Program-made: the position numbers and the translations under genes
Notes under the pieces: model-generated
Database searches by the model: none
Told to the model about the DNA's origin: nothing
Seen by the model: the letters and a program-made list of their open reading frames with translations, nothing else
Shown: piece by piece, positions 5,205 through 15,326 of the stretch
Position numbering within the stretch: position 1 is the stretch's first letter
Layout of the letters: each line of letters starts with the position of its first letter
DNA from: a virus
Strand: one strand, 5' to 3'
UHGV virus genome: UHGV-1604392
DNA: 21,983 bases

Positions 5205-5750
5205 ATGGCTACATCAATCACTACAACCCAAAGCACCCGGCAATATCCTCTGTCGCGGTATGACGACCGCAACATAGCCGATCCAATACTCAGGGCAGAG
5301 CTGCGCAAAGAGGTGATGCTTATGTGTGAATCGAACGACAAGAATCTGACGATTTATTACGTTCTTCCCGATGAGCAATATCGCCCGGATTTGCTGGCTT
5401 ACCGTATGTGGGGCATACCTGTTGTGCCTCCCCGTTCCCTAATACGGGGACACTCTGCGGTCGATTTTTTGACGGGGGACGACTCATACCCCGTGGCATC
5501 TGGCTTCTTAGGCCGCTACCATCATCAGATCATCGTTTGCATTTACTTTAATGGTCAGTTTCTAAACCGCCGCAAAGTCGCTAACCATGACGAAAACCCT
5601 GAAAAAAACGCCCACCCGAAGATGGGCAAACTGGAAGCTCGTAACGCACTTCGGCGTTGCCACTTAGGCGCATGGTCAACCTGGCAACTCGGTGGTTTGT
5701 CTGGGAGGACTAGGCCCAGCCATGCTTACCGCCGCGCCTGTCGCGGCTAA
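5205..5750 (+). CDS. Doubtful ORF; only the first ~70 codons look protein-like, the rest is rare-codon rich and overlaps a hairpin cluster
   Basis: No convincing Shine-Dalgarno; downstream part rich in CTA/ATA/CGG/AGG codons with R/H/W/G-rich translation. Confidence 0.2.
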   Translation: MATSITTTQSTRQYPLSRYDDRNIADPILRAELRKEVMLMCESNDKNLTIYYVLPDEQYRPDLLAYRMWGIPVVPPRSLIRGHSAVDFLTGDDSYPVASGFLGRYHHQIIVCIYFNGQFLNRRKVANHDENPEKNAHPKMGKLEARNALRRCHLGAWSTWQLGGLSGRTRPSHAYRRACRG

Positions 5751-5818: not shown

Positions 5819-8178
5819 ATACCCAAAACGTCATGAGCTACACCTCGAGTGTCTCCCTTACAAGACACAGAACGTCTGGCAAAAAGAGGTTCCACTCTGA
5901 AGCCACTGTCATGATAAAGCTCTCTGATGTTTGGCGCGCCACTGTTAGTAATGAGAACCTTTGCACCTCGACGATGAGCATCCGTCAACAGAGACACCAG
6001 GCGTTTTTGCTCTTCAAACTTAAAGTCATGACCGGAATAGTTCGTGAATCCCTCTGTATTTGGAAGCGGTTCATACGGCGGATCGCAAAAGATGACATCT
6101 CCTTCTCCGGCAGCTTCAATCACCGCTGCAAAATCACCGCATACAAACTCAGACCGCCCTTCCGCACCGAGGAAGGCTTCCATCTCCTGTAATGGGAAAT
6201 ACGGAGTTTTATACTTCCCATAACCGACATTGAACTCACCGGCCTGGTTGTAGCGCGTCAATCCGTTAAAACAATGTCGGTTCAGGAACAAAAACGCCGC
6301 TGCGCGATGTAAATCATCATAGACTTGTTTGTTAAACGCATTCCGTACTGCCAGGTATCCTTCCTGTGTGTTGTAGTCCTGGAAGAAACGATGTGCCAGA
6401 GTGATAAGTGAATGCGCCTCGCGTTGCAGAGTCTTGTAAAAGTTAATCAGGTCAGCATTCACATCATTTAGCAGATTTTCCTGGTATCCGGCATTCATGA
6501 AGACAGCTCCGCCACCAACGAAAGGTTCAATCAAGCGCTTCCCTTCTGGCAAATAGCGAAAGATTTGTTCCAGAACACCAAATTTTCCACCAGCCCATTT
6601 GAATATAGACCGTTCGAATTCTGCCGCTGGTTTAACTTTTCGCTCTTTTGTTTCACTTCCTTCTTTCTGCCGACATACGGCCTTAGTAATCTGATCGCCA
6701 ATCCAGCGCATTACTGGTATTGCCATACTATTGCCGATCGCTTTGTAACGCGGTCCGTCAGCTGCAAGCATCGCGGCCTCTTCTTCGCTTAAATCTGGAT
6801 AGTGATTGCGAAGATATGCCAGTTCATCTGAATTAACTTTTTTACGCTTTTCCGTAGGGATCAACGTATGCCCATCAGGAAAACCTTGCAGCCTTTCACA
6901 TTCGACAGGGGTAAGACGGCGGACAGCTACTTCTGCGTTTCTTACTTCATAGCAAACAGCTGTTGGATTTTTAGCCATTAGAGATGGTGAAGTATTCTTA
7001 GTTGCAGCATGTTGTGTACCGCTCATACGCTCAGGAAAAGCCAATGTAACAAGATGCTCATGGCTTTCTTGCTCACGTGCCCGCAATGTACCATGCCCTT
7101 CTGACCAAAAACCTGCTCCTGTGCTGCTAAAAACGGCAAGATCAGTGGCATCTTTAAAATCTCTTGCCTTTACTGTCGATGCGGTTTCATCGTCAATATA
7201 TTCCCCAAATGCTGCCATCCTGAAAGCGTTTACGGCTTTCGTCGATTTCATACCGGGTGGCATGTCAGCGTGTAGGCATGGATTTAGGCTTTCGCCACTG
7301 ATTGCAGCGCCATTTGCAATAATGGCGGAAGCGATTTCCTTCTTTTTTCGGCTCGGCGCAATATTCCGGCGCACGCCTTCGAACTCAAAAAGTACCGTTG
7401 CGGGATCGAGGTCTGTTCGAGCACTTGCGACAACAAACACGCATCGGCGTCGTTGTGCCACTCCGAAGTATTGGGCATCAAGGATTCTCCAGGCCACTTT
7501 TCGCTGCGGTCCATAAATACAACCACACTGCGGCCACTTTGGAGCATGGCAACCGGTTTTGATATCCCACCGCCAGAACGCGTTACTTTTTCCTGATTCA
7601 GGTCGATCACCTGGTTCGAATGGCGCATCTTCTCCAGCCAATCCGGCAAGGAAACATCCGAAGGCGTTATCTGCCGATGACAAGACTCCTGGGACATTTT
7701 CCCAGACGATAACGGCTGGTTTGAGAAATGACTCAGCCCGTTTGTCGTCAATTGCATTTGCAAGCTCCACATACTTTAAAGTTAGCGCGCCACGCTCATC
7801 ATCAAGCCCACCACGTAATCCAGCGATACTGAATGCCTGACAGTTATGGACCACCGCACCATTGAGGATATAGGAATGATCACCTTCGACTTCTATGTTG
7901 TATACAGTATCTAGGCCTACCGATTTAAACTCTTTGACTGTTCGTAAAAGCATTCCATGAGCCAATCTTGATTTACGTGACAATTTCTGCGGGCAGATTG
8001 TTACCTGATAATAATTCCGTTGATTTACCACGCGATCCTCAATCACTTTTTTGGGCTCAACTTCAATAAAGCTGACCGAAGAAACATAACCACAAGTCTG
8101 TGACAACTCCGCAACGCCCCAAGCAATACTCGCGGCTTCAATTCCACTGCAAACAGATCCATAGCACAGCTCTTTCAC
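5809..8178 (-). CDS. dmt: Bifunctional DNA methyltransferase: N-terminal C5-cytosine MTase domain fused to C-terminal Dam-like N6-adenine MTase domain (P1 Dmt-like)
   Basis: C5 motifs [42 protein letters not shown] and catalytic NCQ; C-terminal [15 protein letters not shown] and DPPY motifs of Dam-type enzymes. GTG start overlaps the stop of the upstream rdgC-like gene. Confidence 0.85.
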
Positions 8179-11760: not shown

Positions 11761-11794
11761 GCCGCGTCATTACTGGCCTGAAATGGGATCAACA

Positions 11795-11898
11795 TTGACT
11801 ATACGCGATTTTATGTTGACTGTGCACGATTTATTGTTGACTGCACGCGATTTATTGTTGACTATACGCGACAGAAACATTGACTGTAAGCGATTTTA
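11795..11898 (+). repeat. incC-type iterons: five direct repeats of about 19 bp (TTGACTryrCGCGATTT-like) at 21-22-bp spacing, upstream of repA
   Basis: Repeat starts at about 11795, 11816, 11837, 11858 and 11880, read from sequence. Confidence 0.8.
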
Positions 11899-11974
11899 GA
11901 GTCTGAATATTCACAGCTGTTGATAACAGCCATCCAAATTGACGTCAGGCCGCGCCACACATGGAGAAACTGCG

Positions 11975-12859
11975 ATGCCGGAAGAAAGTAAAGGCTTCCT
12001 TAGCGTTGAAGAAGTTGCAGGAAATACAGGAGAAATCCACAGCCTGAAGCCCAATAACAACAGCACTATACAACCCATCGCTTTGTTGCGCTTAGGTGTG
12101 TTTGTGCCAACCTTAAAATCTACCAATGTGGCGCTACGTCGCGGATCGTCAGTTACTACAAACACAACGAACGCAACCGAAGAACTATCAAGCCTCAAAA
12201 TTGTTGAGCAGGAAGGCTATGAGGGAATTGAAATTCATGGTCCACGCCTGGATATGGATACTGATTTTAAGGTGTGGGTGGGCATAACCTCCGCGTTGTT
12301 TGACTACGCACCTGATGATGACGGCATAATCACCCTGCCATTCTCCGAGTTTGCCGATCGATGCGGCTATCCACGTAAGCGCCTTTCAAAGGCGTTCCGT
12401 AAAAGTATTGATGACTCTCTGACACGCATTCAGCAGACAGTTGTCAAATTCCGCTTCCCGGCGGCAAAAGGTCATCTCAATAACATTAACGTCAACTTGT
12501 TGGCATATAGCAGCCTGAATACCGAGCTTGATGTTATCGAGATCCAGCCGCAGAAACAGCTATCTGAACTTTACTATGTTGACTATAAGCGAATCCTGAA
12601 GCTGAAGATGCTGGATAAACTAGGGCGCAAAGAGACGGCCAAGGTACTGTATACATTCTTTGAGGCTCTACCCGCCAACCCGGCACCTGTCAGCATTGAG
12701 CGCCTTAGAGCGAGGCTTAATCTCAAATCATCCGTTAGCGTGCAAAATAGCGTTATCAGAAAAGCCATGAAAGATTTGGAAGCTATTGAATATCTTAAAT
12801 TTTCAGAGATAAAAAACGGCAGGAAAATCGGCTTCCAGATCCATAAGCGCAATCCATAA
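11975..12859 (+). CDS. repA: Replication initiator RepA (P1 RepA family), about 294 aa from ATG at 11975
   Basis: Flanked by iterons on both sides; LRLGVFVP and GPRLDMDTDFKVW segments match P1 RepA as I recall it; GGAGAAA 8 nt upstream of the ATG. The ORF-track start at 11939 is a TTG inside the iteron region. Confidence 0.85.
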   Translation: MPEESKGFLSVEEVAGNTGEIHSLKPNNNSTIQPIALLRLGVFVPTLKSTNVALRRGSSVTTNTTNATEELSSLKIVEQEGYEGIEIHGPRLDMDTDFKVWVGITSALFDYAPDDDGIITLPFSEFADRCGYPRKRLSKAFRKSIDDSLTRIQQTVVKFRFPAAKGHLNNINVNLLAYSSLNTELDVIEIQPQKQLSELYYVDYKRILKLKMLDKLGRKETAKVLYTFFEALPANPAPVSIERLRARLNLKSSVSVQNSVIRKAMKDLEAIEYLKFSEIKNGRKIGFQIHKRNP

Positions 12860-12861
12860 TA

Positions 12862-13118
12862 TTGACTATATGCGATAGCGAGAAGTTGACTATAGGCGAC
12901 ATTCGTTGACGCTGGTGGATTTTTGCTGGCGTCAATATTCTGCAAGTCGCTATTGAGATGGCTTTTAGGGGCATTTCATCGCGTATAGTCAACGTTTCTC
13001 CCGACAATATCTTACATAGTCGATCTTTGGTGGAGTTAAATCGACTACAGTCAACTTTTGACTGTAGGCACATCGCGCATAGTCAACTATTCACATTAAC
13101 CTTCGCGCATAGTCAACA
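12862..13118. repeat. incA-type iteron array: about nine copies of the same motif in both orientations (TTGACTATA... and ...TATAGTCAA), downstream of repA
   Basis: Copies counted by eye, starting at about 12862 and ending at about 13118. Confidence 0.75.
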
Positions 13119-13151
13119 TTTGCGCGGTTCTCATCAAGCAGTGGTATTGAT

Positions 13152-13961
13152 ATGCAAGAAGAGAAACAACACTACCTCTACGTTCTGGTGCCAGAGAACG
13201 GAGATACTTTTAAAATCGGCATTTCATGTGGTCCATTGGCACGGTTTAAAGGGCTACAAGTGAGTCCCGATTTTGCGCTTTCACGGGTCTATCGTGGTAC
13301 GCGTTTGGCAATGGTTAATCTTGAGCGGGCTTTACACGCAACCTTTTTCCCCTGGAATGCGCCGTGGGAGAAAAGCGCCGGTGGCGGGCATACTGAATGG
13401 TTTACACGAGAGTGTCTTGATAAGGTTTTGGCTTATATCGAATATCTAAATGATATGTGGGGAGGGATTCTCGAGCGCATTAAGTCGAATGATTTACTTC
13501 AGCGTCCAGTAGATGCTGCTTGCTCTTTCGAAAAAGAGCTGGATGTTACTTCTATCGTGACTTTCAAAGATGACGCAGGAATGAGGGACGTGGCTTATGT
13601 CTCCATATCTGGCTATGAACCGGACGCGATCCGCGCTCAATGTGAATTGCTGAAAGCAATGTTTATGCTTCGGACTAAATATCCCTGGGATACAGGGCGG
13701 GTGTGCTTCCCTATGGAAGAGTTAACCGCCACCATTGATTCCCAGCTTTACCACGATAATCCAGAGAAGTTTTTTAGCCTTTTAGCCGATAATGGGCTTA
13801 ACTGTGTGTCCGGGCTGGGGCGAAGTAGAATCCAACATGCCTCGCTCTTCGGTCCCTTCTTTTACGATCGACACGGGTACTTTGAGGCTGAACTTCCGGC
13901 GCTTACGCGTGCTATAGATACTATCGATTTCGAACGATTATTCGCTGCTCTTAGCAAATAA
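13152..13961 (+). CDS. T5orf172/GIY-YIG-superfamily domain protein (N-terminal ~100 aa) with C-terminal domain of unknown function, 269 aa
   Basis: YLYVL...(10 aa)...KIGIS spacing typical of GIY-x10-YIG, Arg 8 residues later (GPLAR), then ...NLERALH...TEWF; followed by its own terminator. Confidence 0.65.
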   Translation: MQEEKQHYLYVLVPENGDTFKIGISCGPLARFKGLQVSPDFALSRVYRGTRLAMVNLERALHATFFPWNAPWEKSAGGGHTEWFTRECLDKVLAYIEYLNDMWGGILERIKSNDLLQRPVDAACSFEKELDVTSIVTFKDDAGMRDVAYVSISGYEPDAIRAQCELLKAMFMLRTKYPWDTGRVCFPMEELTATIDSQLYHDNPEKFFSLLADNGLNCVSGLGRSRIQHASLFGPFFYDRHGYFEAELPALTRAIDTIDFERLFAALSK

Positions 13962-13965
13962 CACT

Positions 13966-13990
13966 GATGCCCCTGAACGGGGCTTTTTTG
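13966..13990 (+). terminator. Rho-independent terminator (GCCCC-tgaac-GGGGC followed by TTTTTT)
   Basis: Read directly from sequence, 5 nt after the stop codon. Confidence 0.7.
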
Positions 13991-14129
13991 TGCCCTCCTT
14001 GTAACTCTCAATCGTGCAAAATGAACCAAACATGCAGAGAATGCTATGTACAAGCATCTACGCATACATTATTATTTTATGCAGCATTTTTAATTAAATT
14101 CAAAAATACAGCATAAAGGATGACTTTCG

Positions 14130-15326
14130 ATGAGTGATTCCAGCCAGCTTCACAAGGTTGCTCAAAGAGCAAACAGAATGCTCAATGTTCTGACTGAACA
14201 AGTACAGTTGCAAAAGGATGAGCTACACGCGAACGAGTTTTACCAGGTCTATGCGAAAGCGGCACTGGCAAAATTGCCTCTACTGACTCGAGCGAACGTT
14301 GACTATGCCGTGAGTGAAATGGAAGAAAAGGGTTATGTTTTCGATAAACGCCCTGCTGGCTCTTCAATGAAATATGCGATGTCAATTCAGAACATCATTG
14401 ACATATATGAACATCGCGGAGTGCCAAAATACCGGGATCGCTACAGCGAAGCGTATGTGATTTTCATCTCCAATCTTAAAGGCGGTGTGTCAAAAACTGT
14501 ATCGACGGTTTCTCTGGCGCATGCAATGCGTGCTCACCCTCATCTTCTGATGGAAGATTTAAGGATTCTGGTTATTGACCTTGATCCGCAATCTTCAGCA
14601 ACGATGTTTTTAAGCCATAAACACTCTATTGGTATCGTAAACGCAACATCTGCACAGGCTATGTTGCAGAATGTAAGCCGTGAAGAGCTGTTAGAGGAGT
14701 TTATTGTTCCTTCTGTTGTACCTGGGGTTGACGTTATGCCTGCGTCGATTGACGATGCCTTTATTGCATCCGATTGGAGAGAGCTGTGCAATGAGCATCT
14801 ACCGGGTCAGAACATCCATGCAGTCCTGAAAGAAAATGTGATTGATAAGCTGAAGAGCGATTATGACTTTATCCTCGTTGATAGTGGTCCTCACCTTGAC
14901 GCCTTCCTGAAAAATGCTTTGGCCTCGGCCAATATACTGTTTACACCTCTGCCGCCTGCAACGGTTGATTTCCACTCATCGCTTAAATACGTTGCCCGCC
15001 TTCCTGAGTTGGTGAAACTCATTTCGGATGAAGGCTGCGAGTGCCAGCTTGCGACTAACATTGGTTTTATGTCCAAGTTGAGTAACAAGGCAGACCATAA
15101 GTATTGCCATAGCCTGGCTAAAGAAGTGTTCGGTGGGGATATGCTTGATGTCGTCCTCCCTCGCCTTGACGGTTTTGAACGCTGCGGCGAGTCTTTTGAC
15201 ACTGTTATTTCAGCTAACCCGGCAACGTATGTTGGTAGTGCTGATGCATTGAAGAACGCGCGAATTGCTGCGGAAGATTTTGCTAAAGCAGTTTTTGACC
15301 GTATTGAATTTATCAGATCTAACTGA
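14130..15326 (+). CDS. parA: Partition ATPase ParA (type Ia, with N-terminal DNA-binding extension)
   Basis: 398 aa; deviant Walker A KGGVSKT; sequence matches P1 ParA as I recall it. Confidence 0.95.
   Translation: MSDSSQLHKVAQRANRMLNVLTEQVQLQKDELHANEFYQVYAKAALAKLPLLTRANVDYAVSEMEEKGYVFDKRPAGSSMKYAMSIQNIIDIYEHRGVPKYRDRYSEAYVIFISNLKGGVSKTVSTVSLAHAMRAHPHLLMEDLRILVIDLDPQSSATMFLSHKHSIGIVNATSAQAMLQNVSREELLEEFIVPSVVPGVDVMPASIDDAFIASDWRELCNEHLPGQNIHAVLKENVIDKLKSDYDFILVDSGPHLDAFLKNALASANILFTPLPPATVDFHSSLKYVARLPELVKLISDEGCECQLATNIGFMSKLSNKADHKYCHSLAKEVFGGDMLDVVLPRLDGFERCGESFDTVISANPATYVGSADALKNARIAAEDFAKAVFDRIEFIRSN

Follow-up and report, generated by a model that had tools for sequence, protein, structure and literature searches.

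A predicted T5orf172-family nuclease gene as the last, heritable gene of the replication module in a p0111-type replicon cassette of a P1-like phage-plasmid

Introduction

Nucleases of the T5orf172 type, a GIY-YIG subfamily, are known as free-standing homing endonucleases with shuffled modular DNA-binding domains from ICP1 and many other phages, where their genes stand at the boundaries of genetic exchange (PMC10448857). In one such protein, Odn (Gp88) of ICP1, the T5orf172 nuclease is fused to a DNA-binding domain that is 42% identical to the RepA_N domain of the PLE satellite. Odn cleaves the PLE origin in an iteron-dependent manner, which requires E180, the catalytic glutamate inferred by its authors from GIY-YIG alignments, and PLE evades Odn by exchanging its modular RepA_N/ori cassette (PMC8263062). 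Odn-like T5orf172/RepA_N proteins occur in coliphages as well, and domesticated T5orf172 proteins are also known (PMC10448857). Here, we analyze a gene, called X in what follows, in a stretch of 21,983 nucleotides from the virus genome UHGV-1604392 (hereafter, the window). Judging by its sequence, the N-terminal domain of X is a T5orf172 (GIY-YIG) domain with intact predicted catalytic residues, and the gene is the last one of the replication module and is inherited together with the replicon cassette to which it belongs, that of a P1-like phage-plasmid. No description of its function was found in the literature searched. The setting of X, a replicon cassette of a phage-plasmid, is new, while its kind, that of T5orf172 homing-endonuclease-like or Odn-like nucleases, is known.

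What X and Odn have in common is a T5orf172 domain with a conserved glutamate, a two-module build and a tie to swappable Rep/iteron cassettes. What is more, the specificity domain of Odn is initiator-linked, and a direct analogue of this, with Rep3 WH1-WH2 domains, is found in P0048, a relative of X. That said, the two proteins differ in several respects. Namely, in Odn the DNA-binding domain is N-terminal and the nuclease C-terminal, while in X this order is reversed; the binding domain of Odn can be recognized as RepA_N from its sequence, whereas the C-terminal domain (C-domain) of X has no sequence similarity to the Rep proteins with which it was compared; and Odn belongs to a lytic phage attacking a satellite, whereas X lies inside the replicon cassette of a phage-plasmid, beside its own iterons. 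As to the arrangement of domains, X resembles I-TevI, in which a GIY-YIG-type nuclease comes first and is joined by a linker to a DNA-binding domain at the C-terminus; in X, the latter is a predicted one. Like the free-standing GIY-YIG homing endonucleases (T4 Seg, I-TevI and the ICP1 T5orf172 proteins; PMC10448857), X is intergenic and stands beside essential genes, and it shares with homing endonucleases a position at the boundary of an exchange tract, a patchy distribution and frequent decay. Unlike them, however, it has no detectable zinc-finger, CapR, DUF723 or helix-turn-helix domain, no clean empty site or target site for it was found, and it is fixed within the p0111 type. The CapR protein of PLE, a domesticated repressor related to T5orf172 homing endonucleases, belongs to the same protein world and offers a possible precedent for a DNA-binding role without cleavage, but X, unlike CapR, keeps the complete set of catalytic motifs and has no CapR-type zinc finger. 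Finally, the structure-specific SLX1/GIY-YIG nucleases resemble X in fold only (11-17% identity), whereas their partners (SLX4, RING domain) and biology differ.

Results

The window is homologous to phage P1 (NC_005856; 94-99% at the nucleotide level) up to position 11777, inside oriR, where this homology breaks off to return at 14028, which is 67 nt past the stop codon of X and just beyond a terminator. A cassette of 2.25 kb thus stands in place of 1.49 kb of P1 (Table 1), and it comprises the oriR iterons, repA, the incA iterons and X. Out of 13 iteron-like matches in the window (0.94 expected by chance), 12 fall in oriR, repA and incA, with a single stray one at 5666. The last incA iteron (13103-13117) ends 34 nt before the ATG of X, and no recognizable promoter for X was found from that iteron to the ATG; likewise, no promoter or terminator was detected in the stretch from repA to X. 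Directly after X comes the intrinsic terminator that the earlier note had assigned to this gene, and it is indeed there, as GCCCC-TGAAC-GGGGC followed by six T; the orthologue of X in another P1-like locus (L051) is directly followed on its 3' side by a similar hairpin with T6. By its sequence, this predicted terminator ends transcription of the cassette ahead of Ppar, and parA starts only at 14130, downstream of both X and Ppar. The GC content of X (47.3%) matches that of the neighboring genes (45-47%), and we have rejected the idea that X is compositionally foreign. The earlier note was right in placing X in the slot between incA and parA, yet X is no independent insertion that separates two modules: it is the last gene of the replication module.

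The same note had proposed a T5orf172/GIY-YIG-like N-terminus from the spacing YLYVL...KIGIS...R, and profile searches agree with this call. Namely, the Pfam family PF10544 (T5orf172) matches residues 8-92 of X with E=4.3e-6; its score of 27.6 bits exceeds the curated cut-off, which is 20, and MUG113 and Tox-URI2 of the GIY-YIG clan give sub-threshold matches. The motifs are Y8-L9-Y10, K21-I22-G23-I24-S25, R31 and E82, the last within TEWF. In an alignment of 105 relatives, 99 of which match PF10544 themselves, G23, R31, E58 and E82 are invariant, and Y10, K21, S44, L61, H62, G79, T81 and F84 are conserved in at least 90% of the sequences; the window protein has all of these residues. In the PHROGs database, the whole protein corresponds to phrog_2876, a family of unknown function, and its N-terminus weakly matches an 'endonuclease' PHROG, whereas an NCBIfam search gave no match. 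In databases, the protein carries the labels 'GIY-YIG nuclease family protein' or 'T5orf172 domain-containing protein'. An AlphaFold2 model, based on a 30-sequence alignment, has a predicted local distance difference test score (pLDDT) of 78.5 (an earlier run with 3 sequences, at pLDDT 51, was unusable), with values above 90 in the N-terminal domain (N-domain), 60-85 in the C-domain and two poorly modelled loops. In this model the N-domain has the GIY-YIG alpha/beta fold, and its structural matches in BFVD are phage T5orf172 proteins, including homing endonucleases with CapR homology and ICP1 ORF88, that is, Odn itself.

How is this gene distributed among related elements? An exhaustive HMMER search of 1.84 billion protein representatives returned 172 proteins at E<=1e-3, nearly all of which match only the N-terminal ~100 residues. 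Leaving aside fragments of near-identical copies, only three are full-length relatives of X, with 25-44% identity: P0004 (44% identical to the window protein), P0009 from a Salmonella enterica assembly (26%) and P0011, which comes from a faecal metagenome (26%). No further lineages of X emerged when 5.8 billion clusters were searched twice from k-mer seeds, when GTDB was scanned once, or when PLSDB was searched by tblastn with types B and C. All three relatives lie in divergent P1-like elements in the same order, repA-incA-X-parA-parB-gene 23, and in all four lineages the spacing between the last incA iteron and the start codon of X is about 20-33 nt. The database open reading frame of P0004 (311 aa, in element L003) carries a 41-aa N-terminal extension, from 8001-8123, which is read through the incA iterons (hence a repeated AYSQH); its real start is, by alignment with the start of the window gene, almost certainly the ATG at L003 8124.

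Within these elements, X follows the initiator and not the partition genes. In particular, L003 and a further P1-like element, L049, have practically the same ParA (99.7% identical) and ParB (98.2%), but their RepA proteins are 39% and their X proteins 27% identical; conversely, the RepA of the window is 84% and its X protein 44% identical to those of L003. Across three replicon types, X co-varies with the type of RepA and iterons, and not with ParA/ParB. L049 has X next to an IncY-like RepA (83% identical to that of P1), and P1 has none. The backbones of L003 and L049 are 94-98.6% identical, and the swapped segment between them (L003 6831-9019, L049 6656-8944) starts at the oriR iterons and reaches 63-84 nt beyond the stop codon of X. 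Together with the exchange seen against P1, this makes two independent replicon swaps, each on its own backbone, whose right edges fall 63-84 nt beyond the X stop codon; swap edges of this kind have also been reported for the T5orf172 homing endonucleases of phages (PMC10448857). There are two P1-like backbones here (the window, P1 itself, L003 and L049), ~30% different in nucleotide sequence, and on either of them we find both a p0111-like and an IncY-like cassette, the RepA proteins of the two types being ~40% identical; within one cassette type, RepA is 83-84% identical across backbones. Because both types are found on both backbones, these sequences would reflect an old polymorphism of replicon cassettes, each type having, or having once had, its own X. 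What we observe looks like a polymorphism of whole cassettes that is both old and maintained, and the points at which they are exchanged are fixed, one within oriR and the other a little upstream of Ppar.

The same association is seen in larger numbers in PLSDB. There, 401 plasmids encode a protein at least 90% identical to X and ~398 encode the RepA type of the window; 389 records, corresponding to ~390 p0111-type plasmids with X, contain the complete stretch from the end of repA over incA and X to the start of parA. About 150 further P1-like (IncY) plasmids start matching exactly at window position 14028, and the P1-type interval from incA to Ppar, devoid of X, is present in 144 plasmids. 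No p0111 replicon without X was seen in PLSDB, and the slot between incA and Ppar holds either a member of the X family or nothing, never an alternative cargo. The variable presence across P1-like replicons that the earlier note had anticipated is therefore real, X being absent from P1 and ~144 IncY plasmids and present in ~390 p0111-type ones; of the two outcomes named there as speaking against its proposal, no profile match and universal presence, we have obtained neither. P1 itself has no orthologue of X and no gene between incA and Ppar, and a search of this 214-bp interval for a remnant of X found none, the DNA there being unrelated. The interval does contain (P1 coordinates 3802-3996 in L001) a 65-codon open frame without start codon, ending in ...EEIRVLYAWRMPKHVVTHLAKE*, which is unrelated to X and which is present, at >=80% identity and unannotated, in 144 PLSDB plasmids; the 56-aa open frame of the same interval has no longer homologue in PLSDB.

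The C-terminal ~165 residues of X, which the earlier note had described as an uncharacterized domain of ~170 aa, are still best described in this way: neither Pfam (in which the C-domains were also searched alone) nor NCBIfam nor a sequence-profile search of the PDB gave a match. The structural model is somewhat more informative. A Foldseek search of the PDB with it yielded nothing significant, the top ranks being taken by SLX1, followed by many RepE54 chains and the WH1 domain of MSBI1.176; for the C-domain, the closest structural matches in the model are the Rep WH1 domains of iteron initiators. On the basis of this model, which is of moderate confidence, the C-domain of X is a probable winged-helix DNA-binding domain, and its predicted likeness to Rep WH1 is to be taken as a lead and not as a demonstration.

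Across the wider T5orf172 subfamily, the relatives differ greatly in their C-terminal tails, with 52 singletons among 106 tails, and some of these tails contain HTH_3, MarR or Rep3_N/Rep3_C domains. In the already mentioned P0048, the T5orf172 domain is followed by a middle region and then by Rep3 WH1-WH2 domains, and its gene lies directly downstream of that of a Rep3-family initiator on an unrelated 59-kb metagenomic scaffold; over residues 176-430, P0048 shares 47% identity (E=7e-64) with the WH1-WH2 portion of this adjacent Rep. Similarly, P0034, 52% identical to P0048 over residues 1-192, is encoded directly after a Rep3 gene on a different element. A separate case is P0132, a 537-aa T5orf172-Rep3_N-Rep3_C fusion and the only Rep-like gene on contigs of 2.2-3.8 kb (ENA ERZ1426856, ERZ1426571), which also carry a ribbon-helix-helix gene and a Fic/VbhA pair; these contigs may represent a small plasmid whose initiator itself bears a GIY-YIG-type nuclease domain. 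Other relatives are found in other surroundings: P0015 in a mobilisable-plasmid context, P0017 in a toxin-antitoxin-rich element, and P0013 at a defence-island-like chromosomal site beside Mrr-like, WYL and Ymh-type genes. All in all, the subfamily is associated with Rep3-type replicons in at least three separate cases, though not in all of its members.

To what extent is X maintained by selection? The ratio of nonsynonymous to synonymous polymorphism (pN/pS), calculated over 45-46 close loci (from IMG/VR, RCS47 and one GTDB genome, plus the window itself), is 0.33 for X, compared with 0.165 for upfA, 0.055 for parB, 0.021 for repA and 0.002 for parA. The gene is intact in 38 of the 46 loci and broken in 8, by seven nonsense alleles and one insertion. 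The nonsense alleles are W68* (one locus), S112* (five loci) and Q228*, the latter in a 103,445-bp IMG/VR contig (L022) that we take to be Salmonella phage SJ46, deposited in GenBank as a phage genome. Because such alleles exist, X must be dispensable for a P1-like phage-plasmid. In the locus with the insertion, the IMG/VR contig L045, codons ~99-174 of X are replaced by about 1.76 kb (6294-8058) encoding a 389-aa TnpB-like and a 141-aa Y1 TnpA-like protein, and this insert looks, by motif inspection only, like an element of the IS200/IS605 family. The window allele has two private residues, Y95 (13434-13436) and D213 (13788-13790), where 44 of 44 other close copies have H95 and G213. Between lineages, the N-domain is 35-62% and the C-domain 15-32% identical, the latter diverging about twice as fast. 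Taken at the sequence level, X is under selection but dispensable, its constraint is relaxed, and its C-domain diversifies fastest.

Table 1. Features of the replicon cassette and its right flank in the window (positions are those of the whole stretch).
Feature	Coordinates	Strand	Remarks
p0111-type replicon cassette	11778..14027	+	oriR iterons, repA, incA, X, terminator; replaces the P1 IncY replicon
Five oriR (incC-like) iterons	11794..11893	+	consensus GTTGACTATRCGCGA
repA	11975..12859	+	Rep3/RepFIB-like initiator, p0111 type; 42% identical to P1 RepA
incA iteron array	12861..13117	.	two iterons on + strand (12861, 12885), four on - strand (12979, 13041, 13073, 13103)
X (nuclease gene)	13152..13961	+	269 aa, ATG start; weak Shine-Dalgarno, no recognizable promoter of its own
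N-terminal T5orf172/GIY-YIG nuclease domain of X (predicted)	13152..13463	+	residues 1-104; Y10, K21, G23, R31, E58, H62, E82
C-terminal domain of X	13464..13958	+	residues 105-269; orphan in sequence, predicted winged-helix-like
Intrinsic terminator after X (predicted)	13969..13993	+	GCCCC-TGAAC-GGGGC, then T6; hairpin free energy -9.0 kcal/mol
Ppar promoter with ParA operator	14047..14075	+	promoter-like site corresponding to annotated P1 Ppar; first P1-identical sequence past the cassette

Discussion

The reading of these results that we favor, with a probability of about 0.42, is that X is a two-domain, replicon-linked, site-directed DNA endonuclease, either Odn-like or homing-endonuclease-like. 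This reading rests on the domain identity of X, its intact predicted catalytic residues, its place in the cassette, its co-variation with RepA, the positions of the exchange boundaries, its relaxed selection and pseudogenes, the WH1-like model of its C-domain and the Rep3 neighbors of its relatives P0034 and P0048, with Odn as an experimental precedent; its nuclease activity, DNA target, mode of transcription and biological role are what we infer in the following. Namely, the N-terminal T5orf172 domain would cut DNA, and the C-domain would supply specificity for the replicon type, either by reading DNA of the iteron region or by docking on RepA bound to iterons. In the plasmid state, transcripts that start at the autoregulated repA promoter (PrepA) and read through incA would yield small amounts of the X protein, as suggested by the weak Shine-Dalgarno sequence of X and by the lack of any detected promoter or terminator between repA and X; expression in lysogeny by this route is plausible. 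The terminator after X would, in turn, insulate the par operon. The likely targets would be related replicons that either do not have X or have a rival cassette. Once cut, such a replicon would either be lost, which would remove a competitor in an incompatibility contest, or be repaired by recombination that copies the cassette in, resulting in a homing-like drive, and this would explain why X is found at the edge of the replicon-swap tracts. After fixation, X would decay and could be lost, as in P1.

Several points weigh against this reading. To begin with, the resident plasmid has the same iterons as the presumed targets, and its escape from cutting is unexplained. Next, the X-less allele in P1 consists of 214 bp of unrelated DNA and is not a clean empty site, while in the p0111 type X is fixed, no X-less p0111 replicon having been seen in PLSDB, and therefore no homing target can be observed. 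What is more, the C-domain could not be traced to RepA by sequence, as BLASTP and hhalign comparisons of four X proteins with five RepA proteins, ParA and ParB gave no similarity; that said, this is an insensitive and, in this respect, uninformative test, because its positive control in hhalign (tails of the Rep3 type against P1-like RepA) failed too. Finally, adjacency to rep had to be rejected as a general property of the T5orf172 subfamily, given the locations of P0013, P0015 and P0017.

One may go a step further and ask if X stands for an as yet unrecognized class of 'replicon-guarding' T5orf172 nucleases, present in the exchangeable cassettes of P1-like phage-plasmids and in some unrelated Rep3 replicons. 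With a specificity domain that is derived from an initiator or co-evolves with it, such enzymes would cut rival plasmids, whether these share their incompatibility type or belong to a competing one, decide the contests between them and drive the replacement of repA and iterons. We consider this generalization tentative and, as it stands, rather doubtful, but it would explain the lasting polymorphism of IncY-like and p0111-like cassettes across diverged P1-like backbones.

An alternative to a replicon-directed endonuclease, in line with the defence or exclusion function suggested in the earlier note, is that X is a single-gene anti-phage defence or superinfection-exclusion nuclease of a prophage plasmid, which would cut unrelated invaders sensed by its variable C-domain. 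It is true that the module containing X is expressed in lysogeny and that the nuclease motif of X is intact, that the fast evolution of the gene, its frequent loss and its lineage-specific presence are typical of conflict genes, and that one distant relative, P0013, has Mrr-like, WYL and Ymh-type neighbors. However, a search of PADLOC-DB v2 with X, in which E values up to 10 were admitted, returned 0 families, the slot is no cargo hotspot, as it holds the X family or nothing, and neither the strict co-variation with RepA nor the fixed iteron spacing in four lineages would be expected of a generic defence gene. Moreover, X has no promoter of its own and is often pseudogenised, and a single-gene T5orf172 defence system has not been reported in the literature searched. 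For these reasons, we regard the defence function as unlikely, although 'exclusion' in the sense of cutting rival replicons is possible.

Could X, on the other hand, be just the functionless remains of a homing endonuclease that was mobile in the past and now decays while it hitch-hikes with the replicon? The relaxed constraint, the nonsense alleles and the insertion sequence in one locus would fit such a view, as would the weak Shine-Dalgarno sequence, the lack of a promoter and the private substitutions Y95 and D213 of the window allele. It is harder to reconcile with an open frame whose catalytic residues are intact across four lineages, down to 25% identity, with a pN/pS well below 1 and with 38 intact copies out of 46, and we find it improbable to a similar degree as the defence role. 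Least of all do we expect X to be a domesticated accessory factor of the replicon which binds DNA or RepA, in the manner of CapR or of I-TevI as a repressor, and tunes copy number, handcuffing or repA expression via the incA iterons or RepA WH1 with little or no cleavage. Such a role would fit with X being co-inherited and probably co-transcribed with repA/incA, with its modelled C-domain being WH1-like (WH1 is the dimerization domain of Rep), with the P0132 fusion as the sole Rep-like gene on its contigs and with the existence of domesticated T5orf172 proteins (PMC10448857). Against it stand the catalytic residues, strictly conserved from one lineage to the next, and the pN/pS of X, which at 0.33 is far looser than that of repA or par. 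X can also be dispensed with: P1 and 144 IncY plasmids are without it, and 8 of 46 loci, including the one with Q228*, are broken.

Plasmid incompatibility is usually ascribed to passive iteron titration and handcuffing. If a replicon-linked, site-directed endonuclease is indeed what X encodes, a nuclease that travels with repA and iterons, and that attacks or converts competing replicons, would add an active, selfish layer both to the way incompatibility works and to the way replicons are exchanged as modules. Likewise, the principle behind Odn, a nuclease retargeted to origins via an initiator-like DNA-binding domain, would extend from the ICP1-PLE conflict to that between plasmids. This may also have practical implications. 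Namely, in E. coli and Salmonella, P1-like elements of the p0111 type often carry genes for extended-spectrum beta-lactamases and other resistances (PMC9603915), and, because of this, whatever governs the competition between p0111 and IncY P1-like elements would affect the spread of resistance genes.

Two minor observations concern the cassette itself. First, within the coding sequence of repA, at 12578-12592, there is a near-perfect iteron, GTTGACTATAAGCGA, with one mismatch and in the same orientation as the oriR iterons. Second, at the right junction of the cassette, the 31 nt at 14003-14033 are 71% complementary to part of the oriR iteron region (11808-11838) and include the half-iteron-like AATCGTGCA; this stretch could be either a recombination scar or a protein-binding site.

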